A stretch of 64,000 nucleotides of DNA from an uncultured bacterium (GTDB lineage Bacteria > Macinerneyibacteriota > Macinerneyibacteria > Macinerneyibacteriales > DSCS01), in assembly GCA_964574875.1 (NCBI GenBank), contig CAZNOX010000001.1, forward strand, positions 149,335 through 213,334, written 5' to 3'. The notes beneath the pieces are model-generated. The model was not told the origin of the DNA. It was given only the letters and a program-made list of their open reading frames with translations, and searched no databases. Both the position numbers and the translations under genes were made by a program. Below, piece by piece: positions 13,592 to 59,660 of the stretch. The stretch's first letter is position 1. Every line of letters starts with the position of its first letter.

Positions 13592-14695
13592 CTATCCTCT
13601 GAAGAGGCCTTTCATCTCAGGAGGGACTCTGCAGACGACAATCGCGTTCATTCCTTCATCCCCCTTCTCCGGCTGACGATAAAGATAAAAAACAAGATGC
13701 CCCTCATCCATCCCCACCACCGATAGGATAGAGACATGCTCAAACAAAGGATGAGTCAGGACAAGGGCCAGCGTTCCCCGGGCCGTATCAAAAACGTAAA
13801 GGGTCCCGCGGAAATCCTCCAGGGAGAACCTGTTTCCCTGTCTTCTTATCCGGAGTGAACACTCGGGAGCAGCCAGGACACCTTTGTGCAGAGCCATGGT
13901 CGAGATCACATGATCCCCCGCATTTGAGGTGAACCCCGGGCCGATGGCCCATTTCACAGGGACATACTCCTCCCTGTTTTCGACTCTGATCTCTTTAACC
14001 GTCTCAAGGTCTTCATTGAAAACCGTGATCCGGTAGGGGGCATTGATGTGTCCCGCGTAAAGAAGACCCTCTTTGTCTTTGACAAGAGAAACACCCGAAA
14101 AAGGATCCCCGTCCCGGGGAACATCATGATTTCCGTTGGAGACCGTCTTCTCCACAGTCATGGAACGGACATCATACTTCCCCACCAGGGTCTCTCTCAT
14201 CCCGCAATAATAGAGTGTCTCTCCTTCGAGTGTGAAATCAAGTATGGAATCAAGCCCTGACCGGGCATCCATTTGAAAACTGTCGGTAAAGGATCCGTCA
14301 AGGCTGAACATGTTCAGGCGTTTCATGAAAAAGTCGGGAATCATGATGGTCCTGTCCTGGATCCTCACACCCATGGCCTGCAGAAACTCTCCGGGTCCTT
14401 TCCCCCTGGGAAAAGTGACCGTATGGGTCCGGCCGGTTTCTGGATGGAAAAAGAAGAGCCTGAAAGAGTCTTCAAACTCCTGAAGGTAATAGACTTCACC
14501 TTCATAGAGGCCCATACACATGACCAGATTACTCCGGACGAAATCCCTCACCTCGAGGCGTGCGACCTCTTGAAGAGCAATCGTCTGCACCGAGTCATCC
14601 ATTCTGGAGACCACGGCCTCCTCTGAACTCCGGGCGCATCCTGAAAGAATGAGAAGAACCAGGGCTGCTGCCCCTGTCATGATCGAAGATCTCAT
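13592..14695 (-). CDS. Beta-propeller-like lipoprotein, GKGPGE-motif family, subfamily A
   Basis: Lipobox LILSGC. Motif FPRGKGPGEF. Clearly alignable with the 21046-22122 product. The start is chosen at MRSSIMTG. Confidence 0.6.
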   Translation of the reverse strand: MRSSIMTGAAALVLLILSGCARSSEEAVVSRMDDSVQTIALQEVARLEVRDFVRSNLVMCMGLYEGEVYYLQEFEDSFRLFFFHPETGRTHTVTFPRGKGPGEFLQAMGVRIQDRTIMIPDFFMKRLNMFSLDGSFTDSFQMDARSGLDSILDFTLEGETLYYCGMRETLVGKYDVRSMTVEKTVSNGNHDVPRDGDPFSGVSLVKDKEGLLYAGHINAPYRITVFNEDLETVKEIRVENREEYVPVKWAIGPGFTSNAGDHVISTMALHKGVLAAPECSLRIRRQGNRFSLEDFRGTLYVFDTARGTLALVLTHPLFEHVSILSVVGMDEGHLVFYLYRQPEKGDEGMNAIVVCRVPPEMKGLFRG

Positions 14696-14746
14696 CTTCC
14701 TCCTTTTTTTAATTATGACAAAGACAGGAGGAATAAGTTTCACGGA

Positions 14747-15649
14747 TCAGTAAAATTCTTTGATTTTTTGCAGGGGGAGAGGCCCGCGTATAAGCCTTCG
14801 CTCAGCATAAAGCCCTCCGTCATCCCGTGTGGAGACACGCCACAGGACAAGGGAGAGGCGGCCCTTCTCGATCTCTATTCCGGTGATCCCTGCCCTGTGG
14901 ACACCGTTGCCGGTATTGAAATAGGCTGTGGGGTCATGACCGGGCTCTGAAAAACGCGTCCTGTGGGTATGCCCCATGATGATGGCTCTCTTCCGGGACC
15001 GGGCCCAGCGGATGATCTTCCGCTCGATGATGCGTCTTTTTTTATATTCCTGGGCCGGGCTTGACGGGTTGTGAAACCCCATGGTCTGAAGATGGACCCA
15101 GAAATAACGGACAAAGAAGCGCCCCACTTTCCAGAGCCTGTCATTGAGCCAGTCCCCCTGATGCCCATGGACGAGAAAAAGCTCCGCTTCTCCCCCTTTA
15201 TAATCCAGCCGGAGTCCTTCATGGGCGTCCAGGCCGGTGAAGAGAGGGAGATACTTCCCGTTATAACTGTCGTAGAACCTGTGGAGGAAACGGCGCCGGA
15301 CCCCTTCGTCTTTTCTTTCCATGTCGTGGTTTCCGAAGATCAGAGACAAGCGTCCATGCTCATGCATTTTTATCATGATCTCGAATATCGTCTCATGAGC
15401 CTTATAGATATCCCAATAACGCTTGTTTTCCCACAACTCGTCGCCGTCACCCAGCTCGATGTAATGAAACCGGTGCTTGTCATAGTATTTTAAAGCATAC
15501 TCAAAGAGATGCCTGTTTTGTGAAAAATCATCATTCTTGTTGTCTCTCCCCCTGTGGAGGTCGGAAAAGAGGATCACCCTGCTCTTGTCAGTGATGGGGA
15601 GAGAAGGAGCTTTTTTGTAGACCTGGTCTAACCGCCCGGCGATGCTCAT
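14747..15649 (-). CDS. Calcineurin-like metallophosphoesterase
   Basis: Motifs LFSDLHRG, GDGDE, GNHD and GHTH(R) in canonical order. Confidence 0.8.
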   Translation of the reverse strand: MSIAGRLDQVYKKAPSLPITDKSRVILFSDLHRGRDNKNDDFSQNRHLFEYALKYYDKHRFHYIELGDGDELWENKRYWDIYKAHETIFEIMIKMHEHGRLSLIFGNHDMERKDEGVRRRFLHRFYDSYNGKYLPLFTGLDAHEGLRLDYKGGEAELFLVHGHQGDWLNDRLWKVGRFFVRYFWVHLQTMGFHNPSSPAQEYKKRRIIERKIIRWARSRKRAIIMGHTHRTRFSEPGHDPTAYFNTGNGVHRAGITGIEIEKGRLSLVLWRVSTRDDGGLYAERRLIRGPLPLQKIKEFY

Positions 15650-15743
15650 GATTGTATCATACCCCGGAAAGCCTCGGAAAACAAGAGGTATCTGCTTCGT
15701 GAATTGTCTTGTCTCGCCTGCTGCTGTGTGATATTCTCACAAC

Positions 15744-16184
15744 ATGCGTACCATATCCCTGTTCATTTTCAGCCTGCTTCTCTTGTCCTGCTTTGATGCC
15801 TCTTCGCAGAAAGAGGGGGATAGCCTCCCTGACCGCATCGCAGGGTCACACCGTATTTCTTCTCCCCGCATGGGAAAGGGCTTACGGACCCATCTCTGGG
15901 TCCCCTTCCAGCTGAACGGACAATACATCAGCTTTGAGTCAGCGCCCCAACTCTCAGTCCAGGTGGTGGGACTGGGAAAGACGGCAAACGGAGAGCCCTT
16001 CCATTTTTCTGTTAAAATTGAGAAGATCAAGAGCGAAAATGACGGATTTTCCCTCACACTTCTCTCATCGGAATTCCCGGTGGATTCAGTGGACTATGTG
16101 GATGTCAACTATCTGGCCATGACAGACTGTAAAGGGGCCGGATGTGTCTCACAGCCCCCATGCGGATCCTGCTGTCTCCAGTAA
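15744..16184 (+). CDS. Small secreted lipoprotein with a Cys-rich C-terminus
   Basis: Signal peptide plus lipobox LLLSC. The C-terminus is CKGAGCVSQPPCGSCC. No SD. A possible leaderless promoter TTGTCT-N17-TATTCT ends 6 nt before the ATG. Confidence 0.4.
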   Translation: MRTISLFIFSLLLLSCFDASSQKEGDSLPDRIAGSHRISSPRMGKGLRTHLWVPFQLNGQYISFESAPQLSVQVVGLGKTANGEPFHFSVKIEKIKSENDGFSLTLLSSEFPVDSVDYVDVNYLAMTDCKGAGCVSQPPCGSCCLQ

Positions 16185-16192
16185 CGAGTCTC

Positions 16193-17329
16193 TTACCAGC
16201 CCGCTTTATAGACGGTATTGGCGCCTTCTCTCATGCGTCCTTCTTTGTCTGTCTGGAACGGAGCATAAAAATAGAGGCCGTCTTCCAAAGCCAGGAGAGA
16301 AAAGGAGAGAATGGTCTTCAAAAAAGGGTAACGGCGTCTTTCCAGAAAAACTCCCTTTTCGGCGTCAAAGACATCCACAAATCCGGTTTTTAACTCGGGT
16401 ATGGGTTTTCGTTCTCCTTTGATCGAGGCTCCGTCCCATTCATATTCAGCATAGCCCCCTGTCCCCCTCAGAACATAGACCTTTCCGCCCGCAGCGCAGA
16501 CCCCTTCCGTGGTTCTGGCCCCCTGCATCTGAAAACGTCTGTTGGGAAAGACGACAGGGGCGCTGCTCAGGATCTCCGTCCATCCGTCTTCGATGGTGTT
16601 GATCCAGACAAGCTTCAGGTCTTTGTCATATTTCCTGATCTCATAACGGTCTTTTCGGCCGTTGAAGACAAAAAAGAGGTTTCCCCGGTCATCTGTATCT
16701 TTGATCAGGAGATTCTTCGTCATGGCATCCTGCCCGTCCCGGGCATCACTGTCGATCTTTGCAACCATCTTCCCGTCTGTGCCGAGTTTCACCACCAGAG
16801 GCATCCGGACCGGCCCGATATAAAAAGCTCCATCAGCTGCATCGACGGATACACCGCCGTATGAAACAGAAAAAGAGAGGTCGGAGAAGAGGATGGAATC
16901 ATCATATTCACACTGGTCATTAAAGCATTCCATCCCGTTTTTCTGAAAGTCAAGGATATAGATCTTCCCGTTCCCCACGGACAATGACGCCGGCCACTGC
17001 ACTTCTCCGGGGCCTTTTCCCGATATCAGAGGTTTTTCTGTGAGGAGAGTCATCTCCCGGTTGAAAAGAGAGATCATGACCGTCTTCCCGTCTGTCTGCG
17101 TCAGGGCGGCCAAACGTTGATCTTTATCCGCATCGGCATGCCAAAGTAATAATCTCTTGTCCGGGTCCAAGGGAAATGCAGCGAGAAGAGCCGCTTCATG
17201 CCCGCAATCTTTATCGATCCGTGTGGTGATGAGGCTGACCCCCTCTTTTCTTTCGATCTTCGTGACAGGTGATGAACAGGCTCCCAGTATCATGATCATG
17301 ATTGCAGCATAAAACGCTCTTTTTCTCAT
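16193..17329 (-). CDS. Beta-propeller-like lipoprotein, GKGPGE-motif family, subfamily B
   Basis: Lipobox ILGAC. ISGKGPGEV. Paralog of the 57353-58531 product. AGGAGG RBS before the ATG at 17329. Confidence 0.6.
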   Translation of the reverse strand: MRKRAFYAAIMIMILGACSSPVTKIERKEGVSLITTRIDKDCGHEAALLAAFPLDPDKRLLLWHADADKDQRLAALTQTDGKTVMISLFNREMTLLTEKPLISGKGPGEVQWPASLSVGNGKIYILDFQKNGMECFNDQCEYDDSILFSDLSFSVSYGGVSVDAADGAFYIGPVRMPLVVKLGTDGKMVAKIDSDARDGQDAMTKNLLIKDTDDRGNLFFVFNGRKDRYEIRKYDKDLKLVWINTIEDGWTEILSSAPVVFPNRRFQMQGARTTEGVCAAGGKVYVLRGTGGYAEYEWDGASIKGERKPIPELKTGFVDVFDAEKGVFLERRRYPFLKTILSFSLLALEDGLYFYAPFQTDKEGRMREGANTVYKAGW

Positions 17330-17453
17330 CAGTCCTCCTTTGTGAAAAAGACAGGAAAGCGAAACTTTTTGTTTCACCGGCGTGTATAGTGAAGAGATCC
17401 TCTTGTCTTTTCTTCATAAAGAGGCTATTTTCATTCAAGCAAAGGAGTTTTTG

Positions 17454-18812
17454 ATGACCCATGACCTCACCCGCGGCAATATCCTGAAAAACCTCCTCAT
17501 GGTCTCGATCCCCACAATGATCGGATTCAGTGCTCAGATGATCTATGATATTGTGGATATTTTCTGGCTCGGGCGGATATCGGGACAAGCCATTGCCGGG
17601 GTTACGGTCTTTTCCACGATCTTCTGGATCGTCGAATCCCTGAACGAGGTCATCGGCGTGAGCTCCATCTCCCTCATCTCACAGGCTTTCGGAAAAAAAG
17701 ACATCCCCGGGACAAACCGGGCCATCGAACAGACGATCACCTTCAAATTCATCGTTGCAGCCCTTGCCGCCCTCTTTCTGGCTCTCTTCCTCAAACCCAT
17801 CATGGGGTTCTTCACCGATGCCGCTGTCACATCCATGGGGCTGGAATACGGATACCTTCGTCTCTTCTTTCTGCCCATTATGTTTTCCTCATATTCAGTG
17901 AATACGGCTTTACGCTGTATCGGTGACGCCCGGACCCCCATGTTTATCATGCTGGGGACAAGTCTTTTCAACCTTATTCTGGACCCCTTCCTCATTTTTG
18001 AGACTGTTCCGGTGGTGGGATGCCCCGGAGCCGGGCTGGGGATCTTCGGAGCAGCCCTGGCCACGATCTTCTCCCAGACACTTGCTTTTCTCACAGGCTT
18101 TGCGCTCCTTTTTTCGGGAAAAAGGGGGATCAAACCCTCATTGAAAAGACTTTTCCGGCTTGACAGGACGCTGGATAAAAAACTCATGACCATCGGACTT
18201 CCCAATGGAGTGGAGATCTTTCTGCGGAACATCTCCATGGCGGCCATTTTAAAATATGTCTCCATCTTCGGCACAGCCGCTATCGCCGCCTACGGGATCG
18301 GAGGGCGCCTCATCGGAATCGCTTTTATGCCGCTCGTGGGGCTCTCCATGGGAGGGTCGGCGATCGTGGGCCAATGCCTTGGCGCGGAAAACATCTCCAG
18401 GGCCAGAGAGACCTGCCGGATCTCAGCGCTTCTATCAGCCTCTGTCATGGCTCTTTTTACGGCTGTTGCTGTCTTCTGGGGAAAGTTTTTTATCAGGCTT
18501 TTTTCAGACAATCCCGAAGTGATCTCCATGGGAGCTGATTTTCTCCGCTATGCGACCTTTGCACTCATCTTCATCGGGATCGGATTCGGACTCTCCATTG
18601 CATTCTCCGGGTCAGGCTACAACCTTCCCTTTCTCGTTTCGAGTATCATCGGACGCTGGGCGTTTCAGATCCCGTTTCTCATCATCACCGTGACCCTGCT
18701 CAACGCCCCTCTCCTTTTTGTCTGGCTCTCTTTTATCATCGGAGATATCGCTGAACTCTCATCCCTGGTCCTCTTTTACAGACAGGGAAAATGGCAGACG
18801 AAGCGGGTATAA
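17454..18812 (+). CDS. MATE-family multidrug/oligosaccharidyl-lipid efflux transporter
   Basis: 12 TM helices. The N-terminus ILKNLLMVSIPTMIGFSAQMIYDIVDIFWLG is typical of MATE. AAGGAG RBS before the ATG at 17454. Confidence 0.85.
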   Translation: MTHDLTRGNILKNLLMVSIPTMIGFSAQMIYDIVDIFWLGRISGQAIAGVTVFSTIFWIVESLNEVIGVSSISLISQAFGKKDIPGTNRAIEQTITFKFIVAALAALFLALFLKPIMGFFTDAAVTSMGLEYGYLRLFFLPIMFSSYSVNTALRCIGDARTPMFIMLGTSLFNLILDPFLIFETVPVVGCPGAGLGIFGAALATIFSQTLAFLTGFALLFSGKRGIKPSLKRLFRLDRTLDKKLMTIGLPNGVEIFLRNISMAAILKYVSIFGTAAIAAYGIGGRLIGIAFMPLVGLSMGGSAIVGQCLGAENISRARETCRISALLSASVMALFTAVAVFWGKFFIRLFSDNPEVISMGADFLRYATFALIFIGIGFGLSIAFSGSGYNLPFLVSSIIGRWAFQIPFLIITVTLLNAPLLFVWLSFIIGDIAELSSLVLFYRQGKWQTKRV

Positions 18813-18850
18813 AAAAAGGGCCGCTTCCTGAGGAAACGGCCCTGTGCTCT
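18812..18850. terminator. Bidirectional rho-independent terminator between convergent genes
   Basis: A8 run, then GGGCCG-loop-CGGCCC hairpin. The minus-strand reading gives a hairpin followed by T8. Confidence 0.5.
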
Positions 18851-18866
18851 TATCGGCTCTGTCCGT

Positions 18867-19817
18867 TCACCATGTCACTTCAATGGGAATGGATCCCAGT
18901 TCAAGAGCATCGTCCACATTGGAATCGAAAAAACGGACTTCATATTTCCCCGGCTTGGACGGGGCTTCCAGCTCCACAGTCCCTTCAGTCTCTTCCATCC
19001 CCACATAAGCAAAGGGGTACCCGTATTCACTGTTGTTCTCAGAGCTGGCCACCTGGTCGTTATGAGGAACATCCGGTGTGACAAAACCGAACCAGGTCCC
19101 GTTGCGGAGGAAGACATTGGTCTTGTAAGTCACCTGAAACCGTTCCCCGGCCTTCACAACGCTTTTGGATGACGAGAGGGATGTCTCAGGCTTGAGAGAA
19201 GCCACTTGAAACACGATGCGGGAGATCTCATACCCGGTGGGATCCATGGATGTGTAGGCGCGCAGATGATAGGTCCCGGGTTCTGAAGGGGCATCAAACT
19301 CCAGATAGTCTTCGCGTTTCGGGTCCATCCCGCCTTCAACGATAAAATAATCCCTCACAGCTTCTCCGTTGAGTTTCGGAACATCAGCCGAAAACATCCC
19401 CACCCAGCACCCGTCCCGGAACTCCGGGTTCATCGTTGAAAAATAGACGGTCATGGGCTCATTGGGAAAATATCTCAGCTTATTCGCCAGGATATAATGG
19501 ACCGTGATGGCCTTTTTTTCCAAAACAGTCCCCGGGCTGTCAGGCAGGACAATGGTCAACTCATAGACCCCCTGCTTGTCAGGTGTGGTGAAATTGACCT
19601 CTTCGCCGTTGACGACCACGGGATACTGTTCCAAAGTCTTTTTTCCGTCGGAGAAAACAGCCAGAAGAGTCTCAGTCACATCTTTCTGTGCCACGGTGAC
19701 CCCCAGACGGCTTTGGGGCAGGAAGGTATCGCCGTTCGTCCTGAGTTTCAGTTCGCCGGCCGTGAGCCCCGCTGCTGTAAAAATGACCAAGAGAATAAGA
19801 AGAACTTTGCCTTTCAT
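18867..19817 (-). CDS. Secreted protein with three internal Ig-like repeats
   Basis: Signal peptide MKGKVLLILLVIFTAAGLTAG. Repeated GxYE(L/V)... motif units. Confidence 0.5.
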   Translation of the reverse strand: MKGKVLLILLVIFTAAGLTAGELKLRTNGDTFLPQSRLGVTVAQKDVTETLLAVFSDGKKTLEQYPVVVNGEEVNFTTPDKQGVYELTIVLPDSPGTVLEKKAITVHYILANKLRYFPNEPMTVYFSTMNPEFRDGCWVGMFSADVPKLNGEAVRDYFIVEGGMDPKREDYLEFDAPSEPGTYHLRAYTSMDPTGYEISRIVFQVASLKPETSLSSSKSVVKAGERFQVTYKTNVFLRNGTWFGFVTPDVPHNDQVASSENNSEYGYPFAYVGMEETEGTVELEAPSKPGKYEVRFFDSNVDDALELGSIPIEVTW

Positions 19818-19940
19818 TTCCCGATCTCCTTTCGTTAATCTCCAATTTATATCTTGTTTTTAAAAAAAATCAAGGAAAAGAGAGAGGGCATTTTCCCGAA
19901 AATCATAAAAAGGAAGGAGAGAGGACAATGACCCCGTCCC

Positions 19941-20945
19941 CTAGTCCAGTTCCGAACGTGTTCCGTCAGCCCACTCCAGAAAAAGTTTCCCGTCGTGTTC
20001 TGAAAACCCGGAGGGAACCGTCTTTTCCTCATTATGGGCATCACCCCTGTCTCTCCATGGAGCAGGGTAGGGAAGATGAAAGATAAGGTAAGCGGTCTCT
20101 TTCATCCGTTCGGGGTCGATATACTGGCCGTAAGCTATACACCATCTCCTGTCGGGACTCACCTCCAGGAGATCCAGGATCAGAGAGGGATCGCGGTAGA
20201 GGATCTTTTCCGGCGCCCCCTTCCGGCGATAATAGATCATCCCGTTACGGGCTTCCACTGAAGTGATCTCCATGGTCTTTTCGTGAAAAATGCGGATCTC
20301 GCTCAGGCAGGTATCATCCCATTGTGATCCGGAATAGACAGCTGAGATCTTGAGCTCAAGGAGATAACAGGACTCATAGGCCTTGGGATACCCCTTGATC
20401 ATCGAAAAGGCTTCAAAAGCCCGGTCCAGAGTCTCTCTTTTCCCGTCGATCTCATCCCAGGGAAGGGAGAGCTGAAGAACCTGAAGCTCCCGTGTGTCCT
20501 TTATCTTCAGGGAGAGGGGTTCAGAGGCCGGTCTGGTGAGCAGAAGCGGCCCCTGTTCAGTGACATACCCTGAAGGGGTGTATCCCCGTTCCACTGTGAG
20601 GGTCAGCTCTTTGACTCGGTTGTTCTTTGAAAAGAGGGCCGGGGACCGGGCAAAGCCGTTGATCAGAGCCATGGTATCGGCTCCATGGGGGATGATCATG
20701 GTGATCGTCTCTCCTGCTCCACTTCCCTCTTTCCCTTCGACCCATGAAGATCCGGCATACCCGTCAAAAAGATTCTGCATCCGGTAATCCTGCCCCGGTT
20801 CTTCAAGTGTCGATGAGGCCCTGTAGATCTCACCCATGTAGTCGCTGAACGTCCGGGACAGAAAAGTCATCGGAGCCTCCTCACCCCGGAGAGCTCCGGT
20901 GAGTGCAACCATGATCATGACAACGACGAAACCTCTTCTTCCCAT
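19941..20945 (-). CDS. Secreted protein with a discoidin (F5/8 type C)-like domain
   Basis: AAGGAG RBS 5 nt before the ATG at 20945 (MGRRGFVVVMIMVALTG). LFDGYAGSSWVEG resembles the discoidin-domain signature. Confidence 0.5.
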   Translation of the reverse strand: MGRRGFVVVMIMVALTGALRGEEAPMTFLSRTFSDYMGEIYRASSTLEEPGQDYRMQNLFDGYAGSSWVEGKEGSGAGETITMIIPHGADTMALINGFARSPALFSKNNRVKELTLTVERGYTPSGYVTEQGPLLLTRPASEPLSLKIKDTRELQVLQLSLPWDEIDGKRETLDRAFEAFSMIKGYPKAYESCYLLELKISAVYSGSQWDDTCLSEIRIFHEKTMEITSVEARNGMIYYRRKGAPEKILYRDPSLILDLLEVSPDRRWCIAYGQYIDPERMKETAYLIFHLPYPAPWRDRGDAHNEEKTVPSGFSEHDGKLFLEWADGTRSELD

Positions 20946-21045
20946 GAAGACTCCTTTCATCCGGAAACAGAGTGTATTCAAGTATAGCAGATCTTCAGCC
21001 TGAGCGAAAGGAAAAGCCTGTCATCTCCGGGACTGCTCCGTCTCG

Positions 21046-22122
21046 CTATTCCGTATCAAAGACAAACAGAGTGCGAGAGGATCTTTTCTCTGAATCTGGC
21101 CACAAAGTCTTCGTGGCTGTCCCGTAATCGACCACAAGAGAGAAGAGTTTCCCCTCTTCGATATCCACGAGGACGTTATCCCCCTGGATCTCCTGAGGGC
21201 CGGATGGCCTGATCTGCCTGACATAAGCCCCTGTCTTCATATCGTAGACATCAAAATAGTAGTCCATGACCCGGTAACGCCACTCTTTATCAAAGTCCTG
21301 GCCGTTGGGATTGGCCACATAGAGGAAGCGTCCGTCATTGCGCATGGACGAGATCAGGTAACACCCCACAGTCCCGTCAGTGATTTCATTGCGGAAATAC
21401 TCCGGAGAGGGGTATTTTTCAAGCCCTTGTCGTGTAAAAGTCATGATCTTTTCGAGCCGCTTGTCATACTTCTCGATACGGTAGGGCTGGCCGTAATATC
21501 CCAGGAAGACATCCCCTGTGGCTTGATCCACAGACAGGGTCCCTCCCGGGAGGACTCCCCCCTCATACCTCTTTTCAAAAGGAAGAGAGAGGACCTCGCC
21601 TGTCTCTCTGTCCACACGGGAGAGTTTGAACCGGATGGTCCCGGCAAAATAAAAGGCCTCATCCGTGACTTCGAACGACCAGGGGTTCCCGATCTCATCG
21701 GTGAGGGCAAATTCATCCAGATAGGCCCCCTGAAGATCATAGATGTTCACCCGGCGCATGAGCAGATCACAAAAATAGATGCGGCTGTCATGGATCCGGA
21801 TACCCAGATTGTGCATGACTTCCCCGGGGCCCTTTCCCCTGTTCAGTGTGATGTTCTCTTCCTTTCCTGTGTCGATCTCTTTCACGTGGATGATGTACCG
21901 GTCAGGGCGTCTCTCCAGATAGTAGAGCCTTCCCTGAAAGACAGCGGCAGAATAGAAGAGATTATTGGTGGCCACTTCCGTGGTATCCAGCATCCTTCTG
22001 AATGCCACAGTGCGCACTCCCTCCATGGGCCTCTCGTTCTTCTGAATCACCTCTCCCTGCGGGGCACATCCCCACACCAGGGAAAGGAGGACAAGGTAAA
22101 GACAAGTTACGATCTGTTTCAT
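21046..22122 (-). CDS. Beta-propeller-like lipoprotein, GKGPGE-motif family, subfamily A
   Basis: Lipobox VWGCA. NRGKGPGEV. Alignable with the 13592-14695 product. Confidence 0.6.
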   Translation of the reverse strand: MKQIVTCLYLVLLSLVWGCAPQGEVIQKNERPMEGVRTVAFRRMLDTTEVATNNLFYSAAVFQGRLYYLERRPDRYIIHVKEIDTGKEENITLNRGKGPGEVMHNLGIRIHDSRIYFCDLLMRRVNIYDLQGAYLDEFALTDEIGNPWSFEVTDEAFYFAGTIRFKLSRVDRETGEVLSLPFEKRYEGGVLPGGTLSVDQATGDVFLGYYGQPYRIEKYDKRLEKIMTFTRQGLEKYPSPEYFRNEITDGTVGCYLISSMRNDGRFLYVANPNGQDFDKEWRYRVMDYYFDVYDMKTGAYVRQIRPSGPQEIQGDNVLVDIEEGKLFSLVVDYGTATKTLWPDSEKRSSRTLFVFDTE

Positions 22123-23136: not shown

Positions 23137-26100
23137 TTAATTCTCCTGACTGTCCAGCTCTTTCAACAGTTCTTTCACCGCTGCTTCAAGCTGCTGGTCA
23201 CGGCCCCGGGAGATCACTTCGTAATCGGTATCAACCCTGATATCAGGTTCAAGCTGCTGATTTTCCAGGTAGTTTCCGTTTAAGTCCCTGCCTCCGATCT
23301 CCGGGATCCCGAAATTGATCGCCGGATTCTGAAGCCGTTCCCACCAGACAGATGTCATGGTTCCGGGAACAGGCATCCCCACAAGCTTTCCAAGCCCCAG
23401 TGTCTTGTAGGCATAAGGAAACCCATGAGCATCGGAATAGTTTCCTTCACTCATGATGACAATACTTTTTTTGAACCAGTATCGTGAAGTATCATAACCG
23501 TAATCCTGGCCCCGAGGTGTCCAGTGGATATACTTTTTGCCGTTGAGAAGCATCACCAGCTCCTGGGTCAGGTTTCCCCCGCCATTGAACCGGGTATCCA
23601 CGATGATACCTTCTGTATGGGCATAGCGTCCGAACATATCATTATAGACAAGGTTATAGCTTGTGGAATTCATGGACGGGACATGGACATACCCCAGTCT
23701 GCCTTCAGAAAGAGTCTCCACGGTCCGCCGGTTCTTTTCAACCCACCGGTTGTAGACGGCCCAGTAATCCGAGTTTTCCGCCTTGATAAAGAGCTCCTCG
23801 TCACCGGAAAAGATCCCGGGCCTGTTCACGGTCACTTTGACAAATGTCCCTTCTTTATGGTTCAACGCGGCAAAATAATCCCTGAGGGAGTGCACAGGTT
23901 GTCCGTCGATCTCTTTGATCACAGTCCCTTCCGGAATAGTGGCTCCGGATTTGAAAAAGGGCCCGTCCGGGATGACCTCTTTGATGATGATCCCGTCTTT
24001 GTTTTCATCATCAAAACCGAAAAAGATCCCCAGTGTGGCGACATTGTCGTTCTCCCGGGATGAGAGCCGGGCATAAGCGCCTGTGTGGGATGCGTTCAAC
24101 TCCCCGAGCATCTCACTGGCCAGCTCGGCAAAATCAAAGTCATTATTGATAGAGGGCAAAAAGGGCTCATACTCCCTTTTATACATCTCCCAGTCCACAC
24201 CGTTCATACCGGGGTCGAAGAACTTCTCCTTCACCTGGCGCCAGATATGTTCGAAGAAATAGGCTCTCTCTTCCCGGGGTCTCAGAAACTGCTCCGCCTC
24301 GAAAGCCACTGATTGTTTTTCACGGGTCATCACATTATAGGAGAGGATCGCTCCCTTGGTAAGGACCCATATGGTATCCCGTTTTCCATTGACCGCATAA
24401 AGCCTGGTGTCCTCGGGAAATGTCGCGATCTGGGTGTATTCATTCTGCCTGAGGCTGACCTTCCACAACTCGGTCTTATCCGTATGCCCGGAGAGGTAAT
24501 AGAGGCTGTCCCCGTCTTCAGAGAGAAAGGTCCCGGCCAGCTGAGCAGGAAAACGGGTGAGTTTCAGCGTCCGCTTTTCCAGGTTGTTCCAGTCGATTTC
24601 AATCTTTTCGGTCTTTTTTTCTCCGTCTTTTTTCTTCTTTTCCTTGTCATCCTCCGGTTTCTCCTCTTCCTGACCGAGACGGAGATATTCCTGATACTCT
24701 TCGCTGTTCAACGTGGCTTTAAGATAAGCGTCCCGGTTCATGAAGAGAGCATAGACATTATACTCTTCAAACCATCCGCCGAAACGCCGGGTCCCGTATT
24801 TCCCCGTATTGTAGATGATCGCCTGCCCCTTCATCTCCCAGCTGGCGCCCCAGTTGTAATATCCGCTGTCGGTGAGGTTGAAGACAGGGCCCTTCCCCTG
24901 AGCATCCCTCATCCCGATATCATTTGTATTCTTCCCTTTATTAAGCATGTCAAAGATCAGCCATCGGCTGTCGGGAGACCAGCTGAAAAAAATATCTCCG
25001 TCGATATAAGAGTAGTTCCGGTCCCGCTCAAGGATGGTCGTTGCCTTTTTGGAATCAATATCCATGACCTTCAGGGTCTGGCGGTCTTCAAGATAGGCGA
25101 TTTTTTTCCCGTCAGGAGAGAAAAGAGGCTGAAACTCCTCTTGCGGGCCTGCAGCCAGGGGAATCTCCTCAAGAGCTGTTGAATAGGCCAATGACTTTTC
25201 TTTTTTATCAGTCAACCGTGTCATGTAGATGTCCCAGCTTCCGTTCCGTTCAGAGGCATAGACCACGGCGCGCCCGTCAGGGCTGAATCCCACCGAGCGT
25301 TCCTGTTCCGGTGTATCTGTGATCCGGATGGTCTTTTTAAATTTCGCCGAGGTCACAAAGACATCTCCCCGGACAACGAAAACGACATCTGATTCATCAG
25401 GGGAGACATCAAACTCGGTGACCCCTCCTGTATGGACGATACGGTCCACAGCGTAGTGTTTGGGCTCATTGATGATCTCCACATCCACTTTCCGGCTCTT
25501 CCCGCCGTTCAGGAGGTAGATATCCCCGTGATATCCGTAGCAGAGGGTGTTGTCGTCTGATATGGTCAGGAAGCGGACAGGATGGCGGTCATGAAAGGTC
25601 ACCTGTGTGACTTGAGTGGGATCATCCAGAGAAAATGACGCCACGTTGAAATCGCCGAACTGTTCCGTGAGGTAATAGACCCTCCTCCCGGTATTGTCCA
25701 GAACAGGATTACGGTCTTCTCCCTTGAAGCTCGTCAGCATGGTATGGGTCTTGTTTTGAATGTCATACATCCTGATATTTCTGGCCACAGAGGATGTGTG
25801 ATGCTTTCTCCAGGCATTCTCGCCCCCTTTGAGGTCCTGATAGAGGAGAAAATCTCCATTCTTCGAGATGACCACTTCTTCAGCCGGTGTTGTCAGGACC
25901 TGCCGGACCCGGCTGTCACTGATGGCCACACGGTAAAGCTCATCCAGGTAATAGGCTGGATAGAGGCGGTTTTCAGGGGCATCCTGGATGTGAGCGCTGA
26001 AGAGGATCTCTTTCCCGTCCGGTGTAAATGTGTAGGGAATCTCAGAGCCCGGAAAATTCGTGATGCGCCGGGCTTCTCCCCCGGTAAAGGGAACAGTATA

Positions 26101-26367
26101 GAGGTCGAACTGCCCGTAACGGAATGAGGCAAAAGCAATGGTCTTTCCGTCAGGGGACCAGACCGGCCTGAAGTCGTAAGCCTCGTTCACGGTGAGCTGA
26201 CGGGCCCGTCCGCCTCCGGATGAAACGATATAAATATCATCCTGATAGGAGAAGGCGATCCATTTTCCGTCTGGAGAGAGAGAAGGATAACGCTTCCATT
26301 GGCTCTCCCGGGCCGGGAGAAGGGTGAACGACGACAAGACGATGAGCGCTAATAAGATCTTTTTCAT
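23137..26367 (-). CDS. Tricorn-protease-like secreted peptidase (TolB/PD40 beta-propellers + PDZ + S41 C-terminal protease domain)
   Basis: Signal peptide. Repeated SPDGKxIAF propeller motifs. The C-terminal region matches S41 tail-specific protease. Length is 1,076 aa. Confidence 0.75.
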   Translation of the reverse strand: MKKILLALIVLSSFTLLPARESQWKRYPSLSPDGKWIAFSYQDDIYIVSSGGGRARQLTVNEAYDFRPVWSPDGKTIAFASFRYGQFDLYTVPFTGGEARRITNFPGSEIPYTFTPDGKEILFSAHIQDAPENRLYPAYYLDELYRVAISDSRVRQVLTTPAEEVVISKNGDFLLYQDLKGGENAWRKHHTSSVARNIRMYDIQNKTHTMLTSFKGEDRNPVLDNTGRRVYYLTEQFGDFNVASFSLDDPTQVTQVTFHDRHPVRFLTISDDNTLCYGYHGDIYLLNGGKSRKVDVEIINEPKHYAVDRIVHTGGVTEFDVSPDESDVVFVVRGDVFVTSAKFKKTIRITDTPEQERSVGFSPDGRAVVYASERNGSWDIYMTRLTDKKEKSLAYSTALEEIPLAAGPQEEFQPLFSPDGKKIAYLEDRQTLKVMDIDSKKATTILERDRNYSYIDGDIFFSWSPDSRWLIFDMLNKGKNTNDIGMRDAQGKGPVFNLTDSGYYNWGASWEMKGQAIIYNTGKYGTRRFGGWFEEYNVYALFMNRDAYLKATLNSEEYQEYLRLGQEEEKPEDDKEKKKKDGEKKTEKIEIDWNNLEKRTLKLTRFPAQLAGTFLSEDGDSLYYLSGHTDKTELWKVSLRQNEYTQIATFPEDTRLYAVNGKRDTIWVLTKGAILSYNVMTREKQSVAFEAEQFLRPREERAYFFEHIWRQVKEKFFDPGMNGVDWEMYKREYEPFLPSINNDFDFAELASEMLGELNASHTGAYARLSSRENDNVATLGIFFGFDDENKDGIIIKEVIPDGPFFKSGATIPEGTVIKEIDGQPVHSLRDYFAALNHKEGTFVKVTVNRPGIFSGDEELFIKAENSDYWAVYNRWVEKNRRTVETLSEGRLGYVHVPSMNSTSYNLVYNDMFGRYAHTEGIIVDTRFNGGGNLTQELVMLLNGKKYIHWTPRGQDYGYDTSRYWFKKSIVIMSEGNYSDAHGFPYAYKTLGLGKLVGMPVPGTMTSVWWERLQNPAINFGIPEIGGRDLNGNYLENQQLEPDIRVDTDYEVISRGRDQQLEAAVKELLKELDSQEN

Positions 26368-38696: not shown

Positions 38697-41600
38697 CTAT
38701 GAACGAGTGCTCTCCTCCTCTCCCCTGTCAAGAGGAAGACGGCCGCTGATAAGAAGGGAGTGGTAGGCCTTCTCTGCAATCATCGTTCCCAGAAGCTGAA
38801 AATAGGCCCGGTCAGACGTGGCCGAGTAGCGGTCGGAATCGATATCGAGATAGACAGAGGCTGTTGTCTTTTTATTCATCTGCGCTTTCCAGATCAGAGT
38901 GCCTTTTCCTTCGTCAGAGACAAGGGACGGATCGGTGATGATCCGGCTGCTTTCCCCTCTGAGTCCCAGACAGAGAAGATTCCGGGGATGCTCCATGACC
39001 ACAAAGAGCGACCGTGCATGAAAATAGGCCACCAGCAGATTGAAGATCTCCCTGACCATGGTCTCCGGTCCGGTAATGGGCCTGATCTTCTGGGCCATGT
39101 CAAAGACAGCATCGATCTTTTCACTTTCCCGGACAGGATCCCTGAGAGCTTTTTCTTCGGCTTCTCTTTCCCTCCGCCGGGGGACACCCCGGATGGAGAC
39201 ACTCCTGTTCCTTCCGGTCTCTTTGGCATAAAAGAGCGCTTCATCAGCCTTGGCCACAAGCTCCTCCAGAGTTGTTCCGTCGCCGGGGTAGAGTGCATAC
39301 CCGATACTGCAGGTCAGCTTGTAATTCTGGTTCAACACTGAATTTTCGGTGTTTTTCCTGATCCGGTCGATGATCGTCCCACTGTCTGCATCACGGGGAA
39401 CCATCATGGAGACAGAGAACTCTTCACCACCGTACCGTCCTACGATATCACTCATGCGGACTGTGTTTTTGATAACGCGCCCCATCTCTTTCAACACGGA
39501 GTCTCCCCGTGAATGTCCGTAGGTATCGTTGATATTCTTGAAATGATCCAGATCCAGGATGGCGATGATCGCCTGCTGCTCTCTCTTATCGGCGTACCCC
39601 AGAAGGTCTTTTGAGAGATTGCTCCAGTGCTCTCTCTTATAGAGGCCGGTGAGCCGGTCCAGGAGTGCCGTCTTCTTTAAATAATCGTAGTAGCCGGCGG
39701 CATTGATATAATCCCGGAAGGGGCCGAGTCCTTCGGTGATCTCTTTATCCGGATAGAGGAGAAGCCGTGTGGTATCCAGGTAGAGGCATCCTCTCAACGC
39801 AAAGTAGTGATAACTCGATTGTCTGTTTTCCCGGACCCTGTTTTTCCCGCGGCCCAATTTCTCGATATCCAGTACTGGAATGATCAGAATCCCGGTCAGG
39901 CTTCGTCCCTGGTGCTTCTCTTCCCTGTGGAAAAAGATGTCTCTGTGCGTTTTTTCAAAAAGGATCTCGTTGAGAAGATCGCGCCTCATGGGGACCGGGG
40001 GGTGGCAGCGCCCCTCCTTCTCCATGACCAACTCTTCTGTCCATCCCGAGTAGAGGTCATATTCAAAAAAAGCTCCCCGTGTCATCCCGGTAATATCCAT
40101 GAGATCCGTGAGGATCGTCTTGTAGAGGCCTGCTCCTTCGCTCACCGGGGAGAGTTGGTAATCTTTCAGCGCCCGTCGTTTATCATCTGCGATCTTTTTC
40201 TGTGCAATACGGCGATGAGTTTCCCGGAAAGCTTCGGGAAGGCCTGTGACCGGATCGATCCCGTGTCGGGACAGGAGATGATGATGAAAGGCCCATTCCT
40301 TGTTGTTTTCCATGAAAGAGGTCCTGTACTGGAGGGGAATGGTGTTCAGCCACTCTTTCATTTGAACGAAGAGATCAAGAAGCCTGTCATAGAAGAGAGC
40401 GGACCCCTCTTCGCTGTTCTCCACCAAAAGGTGAAGTGTAGAGAGCATCTGTGACGAACTGAAAAAAGGAGCCCGGGATACCCTTGCAAAGGCCTCCTTG
40501 TTTCCCAGAAGGGCTCTCAGAAGATCGGCACGGTTTTTTTCAGACTCGTCCTCTGCTTCAGTCTCATACTCGTCCATGACTTCCAGAAAGTGCGACGCCA
40601 GGGCATCCTCTCCTCTCAGCAGAGCCTGTTCGGCTCCATGGATGAGGAGCGTGCGATAATGCGTCTTATCTTCCTCCGATTGAAACTGCGAAAAGAGCGA
40701 CTTCATGAGTGATGTCAACGCCCCCGGCCCCTCCTCCTCTGCCCGGCCAGTGACACAGACAAGGTGATATTCCACGCATTCGCGGAGTGATGACCGGTTG
40801 CCATAAAACTTCCCGGCCTCTTTCAGAGCTTTCCGTGCCTGCGTCCTGTCCCCCATCTCATAGAGGAGATCGGCCAGAAGATAGTTCATCTTCGCCCGTT
40901 CACGCGCACCTTTTTCATCTTCCAGATAGTGGAATCCTTTGACAATGACATCATAGGCCTTGTCATAGAGGTGAAGCGTCTTATAAGCCTGGGCCAGGTT
41001 CATGGTATTCACGGTTGCCGCATGGAAGTAGCGGATCCGTTCTGCCGCCCGGATAGCACGGATCCAGGAGGAGATCGCCTCTTCATACTCTCCCCGGTCG
41101 ATATTGATGATCCCGGTGTTGGTCGAGACGATGGCCACGAGCCTCTGATTATCGAGCCGCTGGGCGATCTCCAGGCCCCGGTTGAAATATTCAAGCGCCT
41201 GCTCATACTCCCTGTTCCTCCGGTAGGCAATGGCCCGTCCATTGTAGGCATTGAACTCCGTATCAAGTGAGAGGTGTTCCCGGTGCTTTTCAACCAGGGT
41301 GAGCATCTCTTCAGCTGTCTCTTTGATCTTTTCGTTATTCTGATTATCCATTGAGGTGACCAGGAGCTGGTTGAGAATGAGAGACTGTCTGTTTTCATCC
41401 AGCCCGTAAATCATCTCCCGAAACTTCTCCACAGTCTCTTCCACCTTGTCGTATTCTCCATCGATCACGTAATGCATCAGAAGATTATTGAAGACACTCC
41501 CCCACTCCTCAGGGTGATCAGCCGGTCCTTTTTTTATAAAATCAAGGAGCGATGCGACCTGATGCTCGTCCCGGCTTTGATCAATGACAAGTCGATAGCT

Positions 41601-43493
41601 TTCAAAAAGGATCCGGCGCAGCGGGGTATCCGCATAAGTCTTCATCTGTTCTAAGATCACATCGCGGCTGATGGACCGCTGAACATCAATATCATCCAAA
41701 ATCTGATAAAGCCTGAAAAGATTCACCCCGAGAAGATCATGAACAGAATGATGAAACTGCAAAAAGAGGTGCCGGAAAAATCTGTGATGAAGGGACTGTT
41801 CCCGAACACCCAATTGAAGATAGGTGTCCATGGCCTTCTGATACGCTTCGGCTCCGAACCCGGAGTTCAATGCAAGATAGACATAACTTTCCAGATAGGA
41901 GAGTTCCCGGAATCCGTTCTCTTCAAAATAGTCCAGAACGCGGCGGGCCAGGGCGGGATCCACACTCTTCTTTTCAGAGTCCATGAGGGAAGAGAGCCGG
42001 AAGACAGTGAACAAGTCATCCTGATAGGCAACATCCTGACGCTCAAAGGACTCCAGGGCTTTTTTCATGGAAGGAGGAGCCTTCTCCGTAAATGCCAGCG
42101 GAATCTTTCCCCCCATGGCCCGCGCGAGTGCCAGAACCTCTTTGGCATCAATCTCCGATGTCCCTTTTTCTGCTTTGAAACTGAGCCCCGGTGCGAAACA
42201 CTTCTGTGGATGCAAAAAAACACCCCGGCTGTCATGAAGCTCGAAACACCCCTCTTCACCTGCCTTTTTCAAACTTTTCATGATCAGGGCTGGTTCACCT
42301 TCGCTTTGCCGGATCACCTCCCGGGCAATATCACGAGGATCATCAAGGAAGATAAAGTAATATTGGAGGATACGGGCCGCTTCTTTTTCATCCAGGCGTG
42401 CCATTGTCAGGGGCACCATCCCTTTCAGAGGTCGTCTGTTCCAGGCGATGATCCGAAGGTCTTTGGGCTGGAAACGCCTGGAGAGATAATTTAAAAACCT
42501 CATATCGTCTTCTGTCAGCCTGTCTGCACGCCCAAAGCCCAAAAGAACCGGGCCTGTGGCGGTTTTGTTCTCCAGTGACCGAACAGCTTTCGTCCGGAAC
42601 TCTTCAGGAGTCCGCAGGCGGGACTCTCTCTCTTTCTCTTCAGGATGCTCAAGATATTTGATGATCCGTTCAGCAGGGGAGATCGTCTCCTCTTCCATAC
42701 CGAAATACTCGTACCCTTTGGACTGGAACAGGGGGATCAATCCCTGATACCAGAGACAGGCATTCTCTTCAGAGGCGTAATCAAAGAGAAGCATGAGTGA
42801 TTCCGGCGTCTCCAGGAGAGGGATCTCCCTCTCCCAAAGGATCAGGGCTCCGGGAAACGGGGTGGAGCGGACATGCTCCCTGACGACAGCGGCCTGAATG
42901 CTGTCGGAGATCACCTCTTTATGGGGAAAGTAGAGCCTGAGGTCCATCACATCCTTTTCTGAAATCCTGTATCCGGCTTCGTCCATGAGACGCACAAAAG
43001 AGAGCAGGTCGGCCCGCCGTCCCATGTCGATGTCCACGTAAAGGGGGCTCATATCAAAAAAAACGACTTTCCCGTCACGGGTCTTTAAAACGTTGCTCTC
43101 CCGGAGGTCTCCGTGATATGTCCCGTTGGCATGGAGAAAAGAGATGAGGGCATAAAGGCTGTTGATCAGCTCCTCTTTATTCTTCGAATTCATATGAAAG
43201 AGCTCCGGCATCTTGTCCGCAATATAAAAAGAGCGGCCGCTGTCCGTAAAACGGCCGTCGATACTCATCAGGCTGTGAAAAGAACGGATGGGACGCAGAA
43301 GCGGGTGGCGATAGAGAGAAGTGGCCATATACTCTTTCTTCAGAAGGTCTTTCTGAAACTTCTCTTCAGAAACGGTCATTTTAAGAATGAGTTCTCTTTC
43401 GGGGGAAAAGAGGTCCCCGGCTTCATAAACGATGAAATTGTCGTTACTGTTGAGAAGCTGTTTTATGGTAAAACGCCCGTTGAGCAGTCTCAT
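38697..43493 (-). CDS. Giant multidomain signalling protein: ePK-like protein kinase N-domain + TPR repeats + GAF-like region + GGDEF diguanylate cyclase
   Basis: Kinase-like elements ILK (beta3 Lys), HGDLRESNVL (catalytic loop) and FFDMS (DFG-like). TPR-like repeats in the middle. RMSD I-site plus RYGGEEF. No P-loop. Paralog of the 45394-50121 product. Confidence 0.8.
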   Translation of the reverse strand: MRLLNGRFTIKQLLNSNDNFIVYEAGDLFSPERELILKMTVSEEKFQKDLLKKEYMATSLYRHPLLRPIRSFHSLMSIDGRFTDSGRSFYIADKMPELFHMNSKNKEELINSLYALISFLHANGTYHGDLRESNVLKTRDGKVVFFDMSPLYVDIDMGRRADLLSFVRLMDEAGYRISEKDVMDLRLYFPHKEVISDSIQAAVVREHVRSTPFPGALILWEREIPLLETPESLMLLFDYASEENACLWYQGLIPLFQSKGYEYFGMEEETISPAERIIKYLEHPEEKERESRLRTPEEFRTKAVRSLENKTATGPVLLGFGRADRLTEDDMRFLNYLSRRFQPKDLRIIAWNRRPLKGMVPLTMARLDEKEAARILQYYFIFLDDPRDIAREVIRQSEGEPALIMKSLKKAGEEGCFELHDSRGVFLHPQKCFAPGLSFKAEKGTSEIDAKEVLALARAMGGKIPLAFTEKAPPSMKKALESFERQDVAYQDDLFTVFRLSSLMDSEKKSVDPALARRVLDYFEENGFRELSYLESYVYLALNSGFGAEAYQKAMDTYLQLGVREQSLHHRFFRHLFLQFHHSVHDLLGVNLFRLYQILDDIDVQRSISRDVILEQMKTYADTPLRRILFESYRLVIDQSRDEHQVASLLDFIKKGPADHPEEWGSVFNNLLMHYVIDGEYDKVEETVEKFREMIYGLDENRQSLILNQLLVTSMDNQNNEKIKETAEEMLTLVEKHREHLSLDTEFNAYNGRAIAYRRNREYEQALEYFNRGLEIAQRLDNQRLVAIVSTNTGIINIDRGEYEEAISSWIRAIRAAERIRYFHAATVNTMNLAQAYKTLHLYDKAYDVIVKGFHYLEDEKGARERAKMNYLLADLLYEMGDRTQARKALKEAGKFYGNRSSLRECVEYHLVCVTGRAEEEGPGALTSLMKSLFSQFQSEEDKTHYRTLLIHGAEQALLRGEDALASHFLEVMDEYETEAEDESEKNRADLLRALLGNKEAFARVSRAPFFSSSQMLSTLHLLVENSEEGSALFYDRLLDLFVQMKEWLNTIPLQYRTSFMENNKEWAFHHHLLSRHGIDPVTGLPEAFRETHRRIAQKKIADDKRRALKDYQLSPVSEGAGLYKTILTDLMDITGMTRGAFFEYDLYSGWTEELVMEKEGRCHPPVPMRRDLLNEILFEKTHRDIFFHREEKHQGRSLTGILIIPVLDIEKLGRGKNRVRENRQSSYHYFALRGCLYLDTTRLLLYPDKEITEGLGPFRDYINAAGYYDYLKKTALLDRLTGLYKREHWSNLSKDLLGYADKREQQAIIAILDLDHFKNINDTYGHSRGDSVLKEMGRVIKNTVRMSDIVGRYGGEEFSVSMMVPRDADSGTIIDRIRKNTENSVLNQNYKLTCSIGYALYPGDGTTLEELVAKADEALFYAKETGRNRSVSIRGVPRRREREAEEKALRDPVRESEKIDAVFDMAQKIRPITGPETMVREIFNLLVAYFHARSLFVVMEHPRNLLCLGLRGESSRIITDPSLVSDEGKGTLIWKAQMNKKTTASVYLDIDSDRYSATSDRAYFQLLGTMIAEKAYHSLLISGRLPLDRGEEESTRS

Positions 43494-43520: not shown

Positions 43521-44489
43521 TCACCCGTGCTCTTCACGCCCCATGGATTCCATGAGACGCATGGCATTCTGACAGGCGATCTTTTCGCACTCTCCCGTAC
43601 TGAATCCCGCTTTTTCAAAAGCCCGGAAAAGACGGGGCATGCCTGAATAATCTTCGATCTCCAGGGGACAGAAGATCCCGTCGAAATCACTCCCCAGAGC
43701 ACACACGTCTATTCCCCCGCGTTGCTTCAGGTGTTTCATATGCCTGACGATCCCGTCAATGGTCCCTTTTTCTCCGGTTCCGAGAAATGCGGCTGAAAAA
43801 TTGATTCCGACCACCCCTCCGTGATCAGCGACAGTCCGGATCATATCATCCGTCAGGTTTCGTGGATGAGACACCAGTTCCCGGCAGCAGGAGTGGCTAG
43901 CCACAAAAGGCCCGTTCAGGATCTCCGCCACATCACCGAACCCTGCGTCTGACAGGTGAGAGACATCCACGAGGATTCCTTTCCTCTCCATTGTCCTGAT
44001 GATCTCCTTCCCCAGGGGGGTCAGCCCTTTTTCGGTATGGATCCAATCTTTATTGGGATACCCCAGAGAGTTAGGGAAATTCCAGGTGAGGGTGATCAGG
44101 CGGACCCCTTTCTCATACAGTGTCTCAAGATCGTCTTCTGTTGTGATGATCCCGCCTTCTTCCAGAGTCAGCACGGCGCTGATGCTCTCTTTATCACTGT
44201 TCCTTTGGATATCCTCATGAGTGAAAGCCGCCTCCAGGCCGCGATTCTCTTCGATTTCTTCATAAAAACGGTCGATCATGGAAAAAGCATATTGCCGATA
44301 CTCATCGATTGATTTCTCCGGATCGTTCATCAAGATAAATGCGGCAAACAATTGTGCCTGAGCTCCCCCTTCTCTCAACTTCTCCATATCGACGTGATAC
44401 TCATTGGAGTCAAACCGTCCGCCGTACGTCAGAGTACGCCACAGGGTATCACAATGGAGGTCGATGACAGGGAAAAAAGGCGTCATCAC
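43521..44489 (-). CDS. Membrane dipeptidase family (peptidase M19)
   Basis: N-terminal VIDLHCDTL metal-binding motif and overall renal-dipeptidase-like pattern. Confidence 0.75.
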   Translation of the reverse strand: MMTPFFPVIDLHCDTLWRTLTYGGRFDSNEYHVDMEKLREGGAQAQLFAAFILMNDPEKSIDEYRQYAFSMIDRFYEEIEENRGLEAAFTHEDIQRNSDKESISAVLTLEEGGIITTEDDLETLYEKGVRLITLTWNFPNSLGYPNKDWIHTEKGLTPLGKEIIRTMERKGILVDVSHLSDAGFGDVAEILNGPFVASHSCCRELVSHPRNLTDDMIRTVADHGGVVGINFSAAFLGTGEKGTIDGIVRHMKHLKQRGGIDVCALGSDFDGIFCPLEIEDYSGMPRLFRAFEKAGFSTGECEKIACQNAMRLMESMGREEHG

Positions 44490-55940: not shown

Positions 55941-55941
55941 C

Positions 55942-59549: not shown

Positions 59550-59660
59550 CGATCCTCCTGTCATGCTCTTTAGAATATACAGAAGCCGTGATAATTATCA
59601 AGACAAAAAAAGGGAGAGAGTGGAACCCTCTCTCCCCCCACCGGTAATAATAAGGCCTGT

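Follow-up and report, generated by a model that had tools for sequence, protein, structure and literature searches.

Four predicted six-bladed NHL-type propeller lipoproteins of two subfamilies in an uncultured member of the candidate phylum Mcinerneyibacteriota

Introduction

The proteins closest to those described here belong to the uncharacterized lipoprotein families PF17170 (DUF5128), PF15869 (TolB_like) and PF13970 (DUF4221), best known from Bacteroidota. Eukaryotic NHL domains, such as those of Brat, Mei-P26, TRIM2/3/71 and Thin, occur in the cytosol as parts of multidomain TRIM proteins, where they bind RNA or protein, and show six recognizable repeats. Functionally analogous bacterial propellers, acting outside the cytoplasm or in the envelope, include the sensor domain of PknD (1rwi) and, in Bacteroides, the surface lipoprotein BtuG (8bai, 8bmy). 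Here, we analyze four genes in a 64,000-nucleotide stretch of an uncultured bacterium (assembly GCA_964574875.1, contig CAZNOX010000001.1, positions 149,335 to 213,334; hereafter the window) whose products share the sequence GKGPGE. The host does not belong to Bacteroidota but to the candidate phylum Mcinerneyibacteriota. Unlike eukaryotic NHL domains, the products are stand-alone predicted lipoproteins with one recognizable repeat and ~100 extra residues, and they lack the kinase to which the PknD propeller is fused. BtuG is a weak structural match (TM score 0.36–0.40), and the TonB-dependent transporter with which it works has no counterpart adjacent to the genes studied here. We consider it probable, with moderate confidence, that the four genes encode lineage-specific, lipid-anchored, single-domain six-bladed NHL-type propellers acting as envelope binding modules.

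Results and discussion

The initial annotation had placed four open reading frames (ORFs) on the minus strand. All four were recovered at those coordinates, with only the start of B2 shifted (positions are those of the window):

13592-14695, minus strand: A1, subfamily A, 367 aa, ATG start, lipobox LSGC (Cys20), predicted six-bladed NHL-type propeller
21046-22122, minus strand: A2, subfamily A, 358 aa, ATG start, probable lipoprotein with the atypical lipobox VWGC
16193-17329, minus strand: B1, subfamily B, 378 aa, ATG start, lipobox LGAC
57353-58525, minus strand: B2, subfamily B, 390 aa, lipobox LMSC, start revised to ATG 58525
14387-14404 (A1), 21820-21837 (A2), 17003-17020 (B1) and 58211-58228 (B2), minus strand: GKGPGE motif sites

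The two-subfamily paralogy is real, given the significance of both pairwise and profile alignments. BLASTP aligned A1 with A2 at 26% identity (E 6e-27) and B1 with B2 at 32% (E 1e-52), and matched A with B proteins at E 6e-9 to 2e-3. The A-family and B-family profiles aligned over 243 columns with 97.2% probability (hhalign, E 3.5e-11). A B-only hidden Markov model (HMM) scored A2 at 2.7e-24 and A1 at 2.2e-15, while a DUF5128-rich profile scored A2 at 6.5e-43, A1 at 5.2e-39 and B2 at 3.2e-32. These comparisons indicate that the four genes are true paralogs in two subfamilies, A and B, and that the shared motif was inherited rather than acquired by coincidence. The family numbers exactly four copies in the window; no fifth turned up when all ORFs ≥ 100 aa were searched with tblastn and three HMMs. 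Three of them (A1, B1 and A2) span 8.5 kb, in line with the clustering within 9 kb first described.

Each gene start is preceded by GGAG or GGAGG. The longest-ORF starts of A1 (GTG 14743), A2 (GTG 22152), B1 (GTG 17377) and the tldD homolog discussed below (TTG 57549) were discarded in favor of starts preceded by a Shine-Dalgarno sequence. B2 was first listed from TTG 58531 (392 aa), but ATG 58525, which sits 7 nt past GGAG, is more likely on spacing and gives the 390-aa product. GKGPGE occurs once per protein, at aa 98 (A1), 96 (A2), 104 (B1) and 102 (B2), thus ~100 residues in as originally noted, and a loose six-frame scan located it nowhere else in the window. The accompanying claim that all four proteins carry lipoboxes holds for A1, B1 and B2, which pass PROSITE PS51257; A2, with Trp at position −2 of V-W-G-C, fails the strict pattern. 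The form [VI]-W-G-C is kept in four A2 orthologs, and the lipobox cysteine is conserved family-wide.

Family models place the two subfamilies differently. A1 scored 31.2 bits against PF17170 (DUF5128, '6-bladed beta-propeller'; gathering cutoff 22.9) and A2 scored 22.9 bits, exactly the cutoff, which assigns subfamily A to DUF5128 by profile match. B1 and B2 had no Pfam match at E ≤ 1, including to PF17170, and eight other B-family proteins that were scanned (among them seven representatives) had no significant one; no Pfam or NCBIfam model matches subfamily B. A word-indexed homolog search returned 5–6 close relatives per query, to which a combined A+B profile added none. We then searched exhaustively with the B-only profile among 1.84 billion representatives of 50% identity clusters. 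It retrieved 341 proteins at E ≤ 1e-3, with only 15 clusters at E < 1e-30. In the full-length proteins among these 15, the N-terminus resembles that of a lipoprotein and the motif reads GKGPGE, or GKGPSE in a single case; their named sources are Candidatus Mcinerneyibacterium or unclassified metagenome-assembled genomes (MAGs). Beyond this core lie giant multi-NHL proteins and proteins of 300–420 aa. Those of the latter that were scanned matched DUF5128 (51/65), NHL (29/65) or TolB_like (21/65), and 67 of 77 carry a G-x-G-P-x-E motif 60–140 aa in. DUF5128-positive proteins were retrieved at E 1e-10 to 1e-5, which, together with the A–B profile alignment, indirectly supports homology between subfamily B and DUF5128. 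Subfamily B also has conserved motifs of its own (YEIRKYD, YVLRGxGG and GFVDVFD). It thus appears to be a rare, divergent sister group of DUF5128 rather than a model-defined member. DUF5128 propeller lipoproteins and the NHL fold were known before; what is new is a subfamily without a family model. As a lineage-specific expansion of a known, uncharacterized family, the four genes are real but fairly ordinary.

The motif can be traced to the NHL repeat. In comparison with PDB sequences, the segment around GKGPGE (~aa 97–142) aligned with individual NHL repeats from TRIM71, TRIM2/3 and Thin, at E 2.6e-6 with A1 alone, 1.4e-7 with the A profile and 4e-10 with the B profile. These matches identify GKGPGE with G-x-G-x-G-Q/E-F, the signature with which an NHL blade begins; as judged from the alignments, it is a remnant of that signature and marks where the one canonical NHL repeat starts. 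Alignment of this blade with the rest of each family profile (hhalign) revealed no further copies, and none of the four proteins matches PF01436 (NHL repeat), as a tandem-repeat protein would. AlphaFold2 models built from alignments of 12–13 sequences are all-beta, with a predicted local distance difference test (pLDDT) score of 75.8 and a predicted TM score (pTM) of 0.79 for A1, and 87.8 and 0.86 for B1. About 90% of a six-bladed domain superposes on the models under 3 Å, and we take the propeller to be six-bladed on that ground. The predicted fold is a closed six-bladed NHL-type propeller, in agreement with the earlier proposal; the 'repeated strand-like blocks' described with it are found in the predicted structure, not as internal repeats in the sequence. 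An N-terminal beta extension and loop insertions would account for the extra ~100 residues.

We propose that a type II signal peptide would direct the export of these proteins and that, once acylated on the conserved cysteine, they would be anchored in a membrane, exposed either to the periplasm or at the cell surface. The GKGPGE turn would open the one blade still recognizable as NHL, the others having diverged in sequence while keeping the fold. By analogy with NHL domains, a propeller face would bind a ligand or partner protein without catalysis, and the paralogs would differ in specificity. At its weakest step, the proposal names peptides, proteins or other environmental substrates as the likeliest ligands. 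Peptides and proteins seem most plausible, as the window is rich in peptidase genes (see below) and A1 lies beside genes for a Peripla_BP_6 protein, an amino-acid-type binding protein, and a Cache hybrid sensor kinase. At least A1 would be an accessory, strain-variable gene rather than part of a core function.

Some observations weigh against such a role. Subfamily B conserves the charged residues E107, K232, R287, D318 and R330 (B2 numbering), which could form an active site. Neighborhoods are inconsistent beyond the closest relatives, so context points to no specific ligand. We found no publication on the function of DUF5128/PF17170, the wider DUF5128/DUF4221/TolB-like group of Bacteroidota, subfamily B or bacterial NHL lipoproteins, and the literature on Mcinerneyibacterium yielded nothing relevant, the phylum name being mentioned only in passing.

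The charged residues, together with the many propeller hydrolases among the structural neighbors, speak for lipid-anchored enzymes with a metal-dependent hydrolase or lyase site in the central channel, as in SGL/Drp35 lactonases, PON1, DFPase, phytase and peptidyl-alpha-hydroxyglycine lyase (PAL). PAL binds its metal through a His triad and SGL-type Ca2+ sites use Glu/Asn/Asn/Asp. Neither the A+B nor the B-family alignment contains an invariant His or Asn; a PAL-type Zn site is thus unlikely, and no invariant Asn corresponds to those that serve the SGL and DFPase Ca2+ sites. Besides the lipobox Cys, the columns invariant across A+B comprise glycines, a single Pro, Ile and Phe, the GPGE Glu and three Asp that occupy sites typical for the structure of an NHL blade. 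Pfam SGL, Arylesterase and Phytase match none of the four proteins, and the structures that match best are NHL domains without catalytic activity. As the nearest structures are non-catalytic, conserved His and Asn are absent and the A+B-invariant residues are of a typical structural kind, we favor binding over catalysis and judge an enzymatic function unlikely.

B2 adjoins tldD and pmbA homologs, with two further peptidase-type genes upstream:

55942-57321, minus strand: tldD homolog with Pfam PmbA_TldD 1st, 2nd and 3rd domains; likely TTG start at 57321; without signal peptide
54636-55940, minus strand: pmbA homolog (Pfam PmbA_TldD_3rd, E 6e-49), directly downstream of tldD
57346-57374, minus strand: promoter-like element TTTACA-N17-TATAAT at the B2/tldD junction (11/12 matches), followed by AAGGAGG at 57327-57333 and TTG at 57321
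58620-59564, minus strand: S33-type alpha/beta hydrolase with a lipobox
60286-63297, minus strand: M16C PreP-like peptidase with a signal peptide

The initial annotation described B2 as part of an operon with tldD/pmbA. The adjacency and the identity of TldD and PmbA stood up; the case for an operon was weakened. TTTACA-N17-TATAAT is the best sigma-70-like match in the region, and the TTG lies 5 nt past AAGGAGG. When the junction (window 57300–57400) was aligned with its counterparts in the relatives' loci L007, L011, L012, L014 and L015 (numbering of the compared loci is ours), both hexamers, the Shine-Dalgarno sequence and the TTG were invariant in all six. Orthologous B2 genes stop upstream of the element, with TAG (TAA in L007); the window copy has GAG instead and so reads 11 codons on, through the element, which gives an 11-aa C-terminal extension. 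The invariance of the element and the Shine-Dalgarno sequence suggests that tldD is probably transcribed from a separate promoter and that the gene probably starts at 57321, 31 nt past the B2 stop.

Two proposals would give this neighborhood a functional meaning. In one, subfamily B is an undescribed lipoprotein family, largely restricted to Mcinerneyibacteriota, with a specific role in the envelope of these peptide fermenters: for instance as a substrate-capture partner of the conserved peptidases M16C and S33, secreted or lipid-anchored, that feeds peptides to cytoplasmic TldD/PmbA, or as half of an A-type/B-type propeller pair. The pairing idea rests on the co-location of A-type and B-type genes in the window, L006 and L019, which represent three lineages. 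We hold this specific role to be improbable. In the other proposal, B2, TldD/PmbA and the upstream S33 and M16 peptidases form a co-transcribed module for peptide capture and degradation or for peptide maturation. TldD/PmbA are peptide-processing proteases known from microcin B17 maturation. The genes for M16C, a KE-rich protein, S33, B2, TldD and PmbA lie on one strand, in an order kept in L007 and L011–L016 (the loci long enough to show it). The stretch between S33 and pmbA contains no predicted terminator, and S33 is closely preceded by a strong terminator (59609-59639) and a promoter-like site (59574-59601). However, the linked loci are all close relatives (62–92% aa identity), and the synteny may for that reason reflect only recent common descent. 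The conserved promoter-like element and Shine-Dalgarno sequence point to separate transcription of tldD, and TldD and PmbA lack signal peptides at their N-termini, whereas B2 has a type II signal peptide. In six distant loci, B-family genes have unrelated neighbors and no linkage to tldD (L006, L017, L019, L021, L023 and L024, covering Candidatus Mcinerneyibacterium aminivorans and five other lineages), so the neighborhood survey upheld the order in close relatives only. We give little credence to such a module. The adjacency of B2 to tldD/pmbA is real, yet the sequences offer no grounds for a functional link or for transfer of function.

One distant locus suggested a different peptide connection. 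In L017 (1-3406; GCA_964539615.1, CAZIJP010000115.1), a distant B-family gene is divergent to genes for a 440-aa radical SAM protein and a 200-aa membrane protein with an HEFGH motif (209 aa as the longest ORF), with a called 31-aa ORF between them. A link to radical SAM enzymes or to ribosomally synthesized and post-translationally modified peptides (RiPPs) was rejected: the 31-aa ORF looks spurious, the genes lie on the opposite strand and the arrangement is absent from other B-family loci. Propeller lipoproteins of Bacteroides are associated with NVEALA peptides. Small ORFs adjoining the relatives contained no NVEALA or other peptide family, and no literature on such a link was found.

A genome scan with a six-sequence alignment, which reached close relatives only, found the closest loci in Candidatus Mcinerneyibacteriota. 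MAG ZodW_Metabat.255 is 75% identical for B1, and the contig in question also carries a B2 ortholog at a distance of 45 kb. M. aminivorans, reportedly an amino-acid fermenter from an oil reservoir, is 32% identical. Around A2-B1-A1, relatives keep the gene order at 63–93% aa identity: a Tricorn-like protease, MscS, A2, a NADase_transloc-domain protein, a 316-aa protein, MatE and B1, then a 146-aa lipoprotein, a metallophosphoesterase-like 300-aa protein, A1, Peripla_BP_6 and the Cache hybrid kinase. A2 heads a three-gene unit encoding secreted proteins: downstream lie 19941-20981, whose secreted product has a NADase_transloc/F5-8 type C domain (Pfam), and 18867-19817, then a strong terminator (18817-18843). 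B1 is flanked by the divergent MatE gene on one side and the convergent 146-aa lipoprotein gene on the other, and is apparently monocistronic.

Among these neighbors, the 316-aa secreted protein (18867-19817, minus) apparently contains three internal repeats, each with a 'PG.Y..R' motif, and the terminator at 18817-18843, with a 12-bp stem, also closes the convergent MatE gene. The 146-aa lipoprotein convergent to B1 (15744-16184, plus) has an LLSC lipobox, and the 300-aa protein (14747-15649, minus) has the metallophosphoesterase-like motifs DLHRG, GNHD and GHTH; neither has a Pfam match. The synteny of these two genes between B1 and A1 is conserved.

Strain-level comparison revealed gain or loss of A1. 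Two contigs (L009 and L010) with ~96% DNA identity to L005 lack a clean 1148-bp segment that comprises exactly A1 and its 5' leader (L005 12584-13731 vs. L009 8584-8603 and L010 8552-8571), from which we conclude that A1 is dispensable, accessory and strain-variable. The junctions show no repeats, phase-variation tracts or mobile elements. In L010, B1 is split by a frameshift near L010 6460, which may stem from misassembly. The family reaches five copies in M. aminivorans, all within 14 kb; three resemble A, one resembles B and the fifth is more divergent. In another lineage, a B-type gene has a DUF5128 gene 68 nt upstream of it.

Variation of this kind raises the idea of variable surface proteins (receptors, decoys or adhesins) under diversifying or phage-driven selection, with strain variation as their main meaning. 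The presence or absence of A1, the L010 frameshift, the different clustering and expansion of paralogs in M. aminivorans, and the somewhat lower conservation of A1 (71–76%) and B1 (75–81%) compared with most housekeeping genes nearby (86–93% for the metallophosphoesterase-like and MatE genes) fit this idea, but it is very improbable, given that orthologs are still 71–86% identical with no hypervariable region noted, the A1 junctions are devoid of the elements named above and the frameshift may not be genuine. The suggestion of antigenic or host interaction made at the outset finds no support in the sources either; labeled homologs come from environmental metagenome assemblies and MAGs.

Peptidase genes are dense in the window (23137-26367, 43521-44489, 54636-57321, 58620-59564 and 60286-63297), a density that fits a peptide- or amino-acid-fermenting lifestyle. 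Two of them complete the features given above:

23137-26367: Tricorn-like S41 protease, assigned from the ortholog in L001–L004
43521-44489: M19 dipeptidase

Other genes near these peptidases are described for completeness. Between the M16C and S33 genes, 59661-60233 (minus) encodes a 190-aa secreted, Lys/Glu/Gln-rich low-complexity protein (the KE-rich protein above), 80–89% identical in orthologous loci and followed by the strong terminator at 59609-59639. On the minus strand, 38697-43493 and 45394-50121 encode paralogous 1598- and 1575-aa proteins with central tetratricopeptide (TPR) repeats and a C-terminal GGDEF diguanylate cyclase domain. Between these two lie the M19 dipeptidase gene and a 292-aa ORF whose match to the haemophore (MHB) domain is weak and falls below threshold.

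Conclusion

A specialist would find this result unsurprising, and it opens no long-standing question. It adds four members and one divergent, unmodeled subfamily to a large propeller lipoprotein family, and carries the DUF5128-type family beyond Bacteroidota into a candidate phylum that has hardly been studied. Its practical use lies in annotation: a family model could be made for subfamily B, GKGPGE is explained as what is left of an NHL signature, and function should not be transferred on the strength of the apparent tldD operon. The gain or loss of A1 between strains identifies these genes as accessory components of the envelope, and offers a useful starting point for population-genomic or phage-interaction studies.

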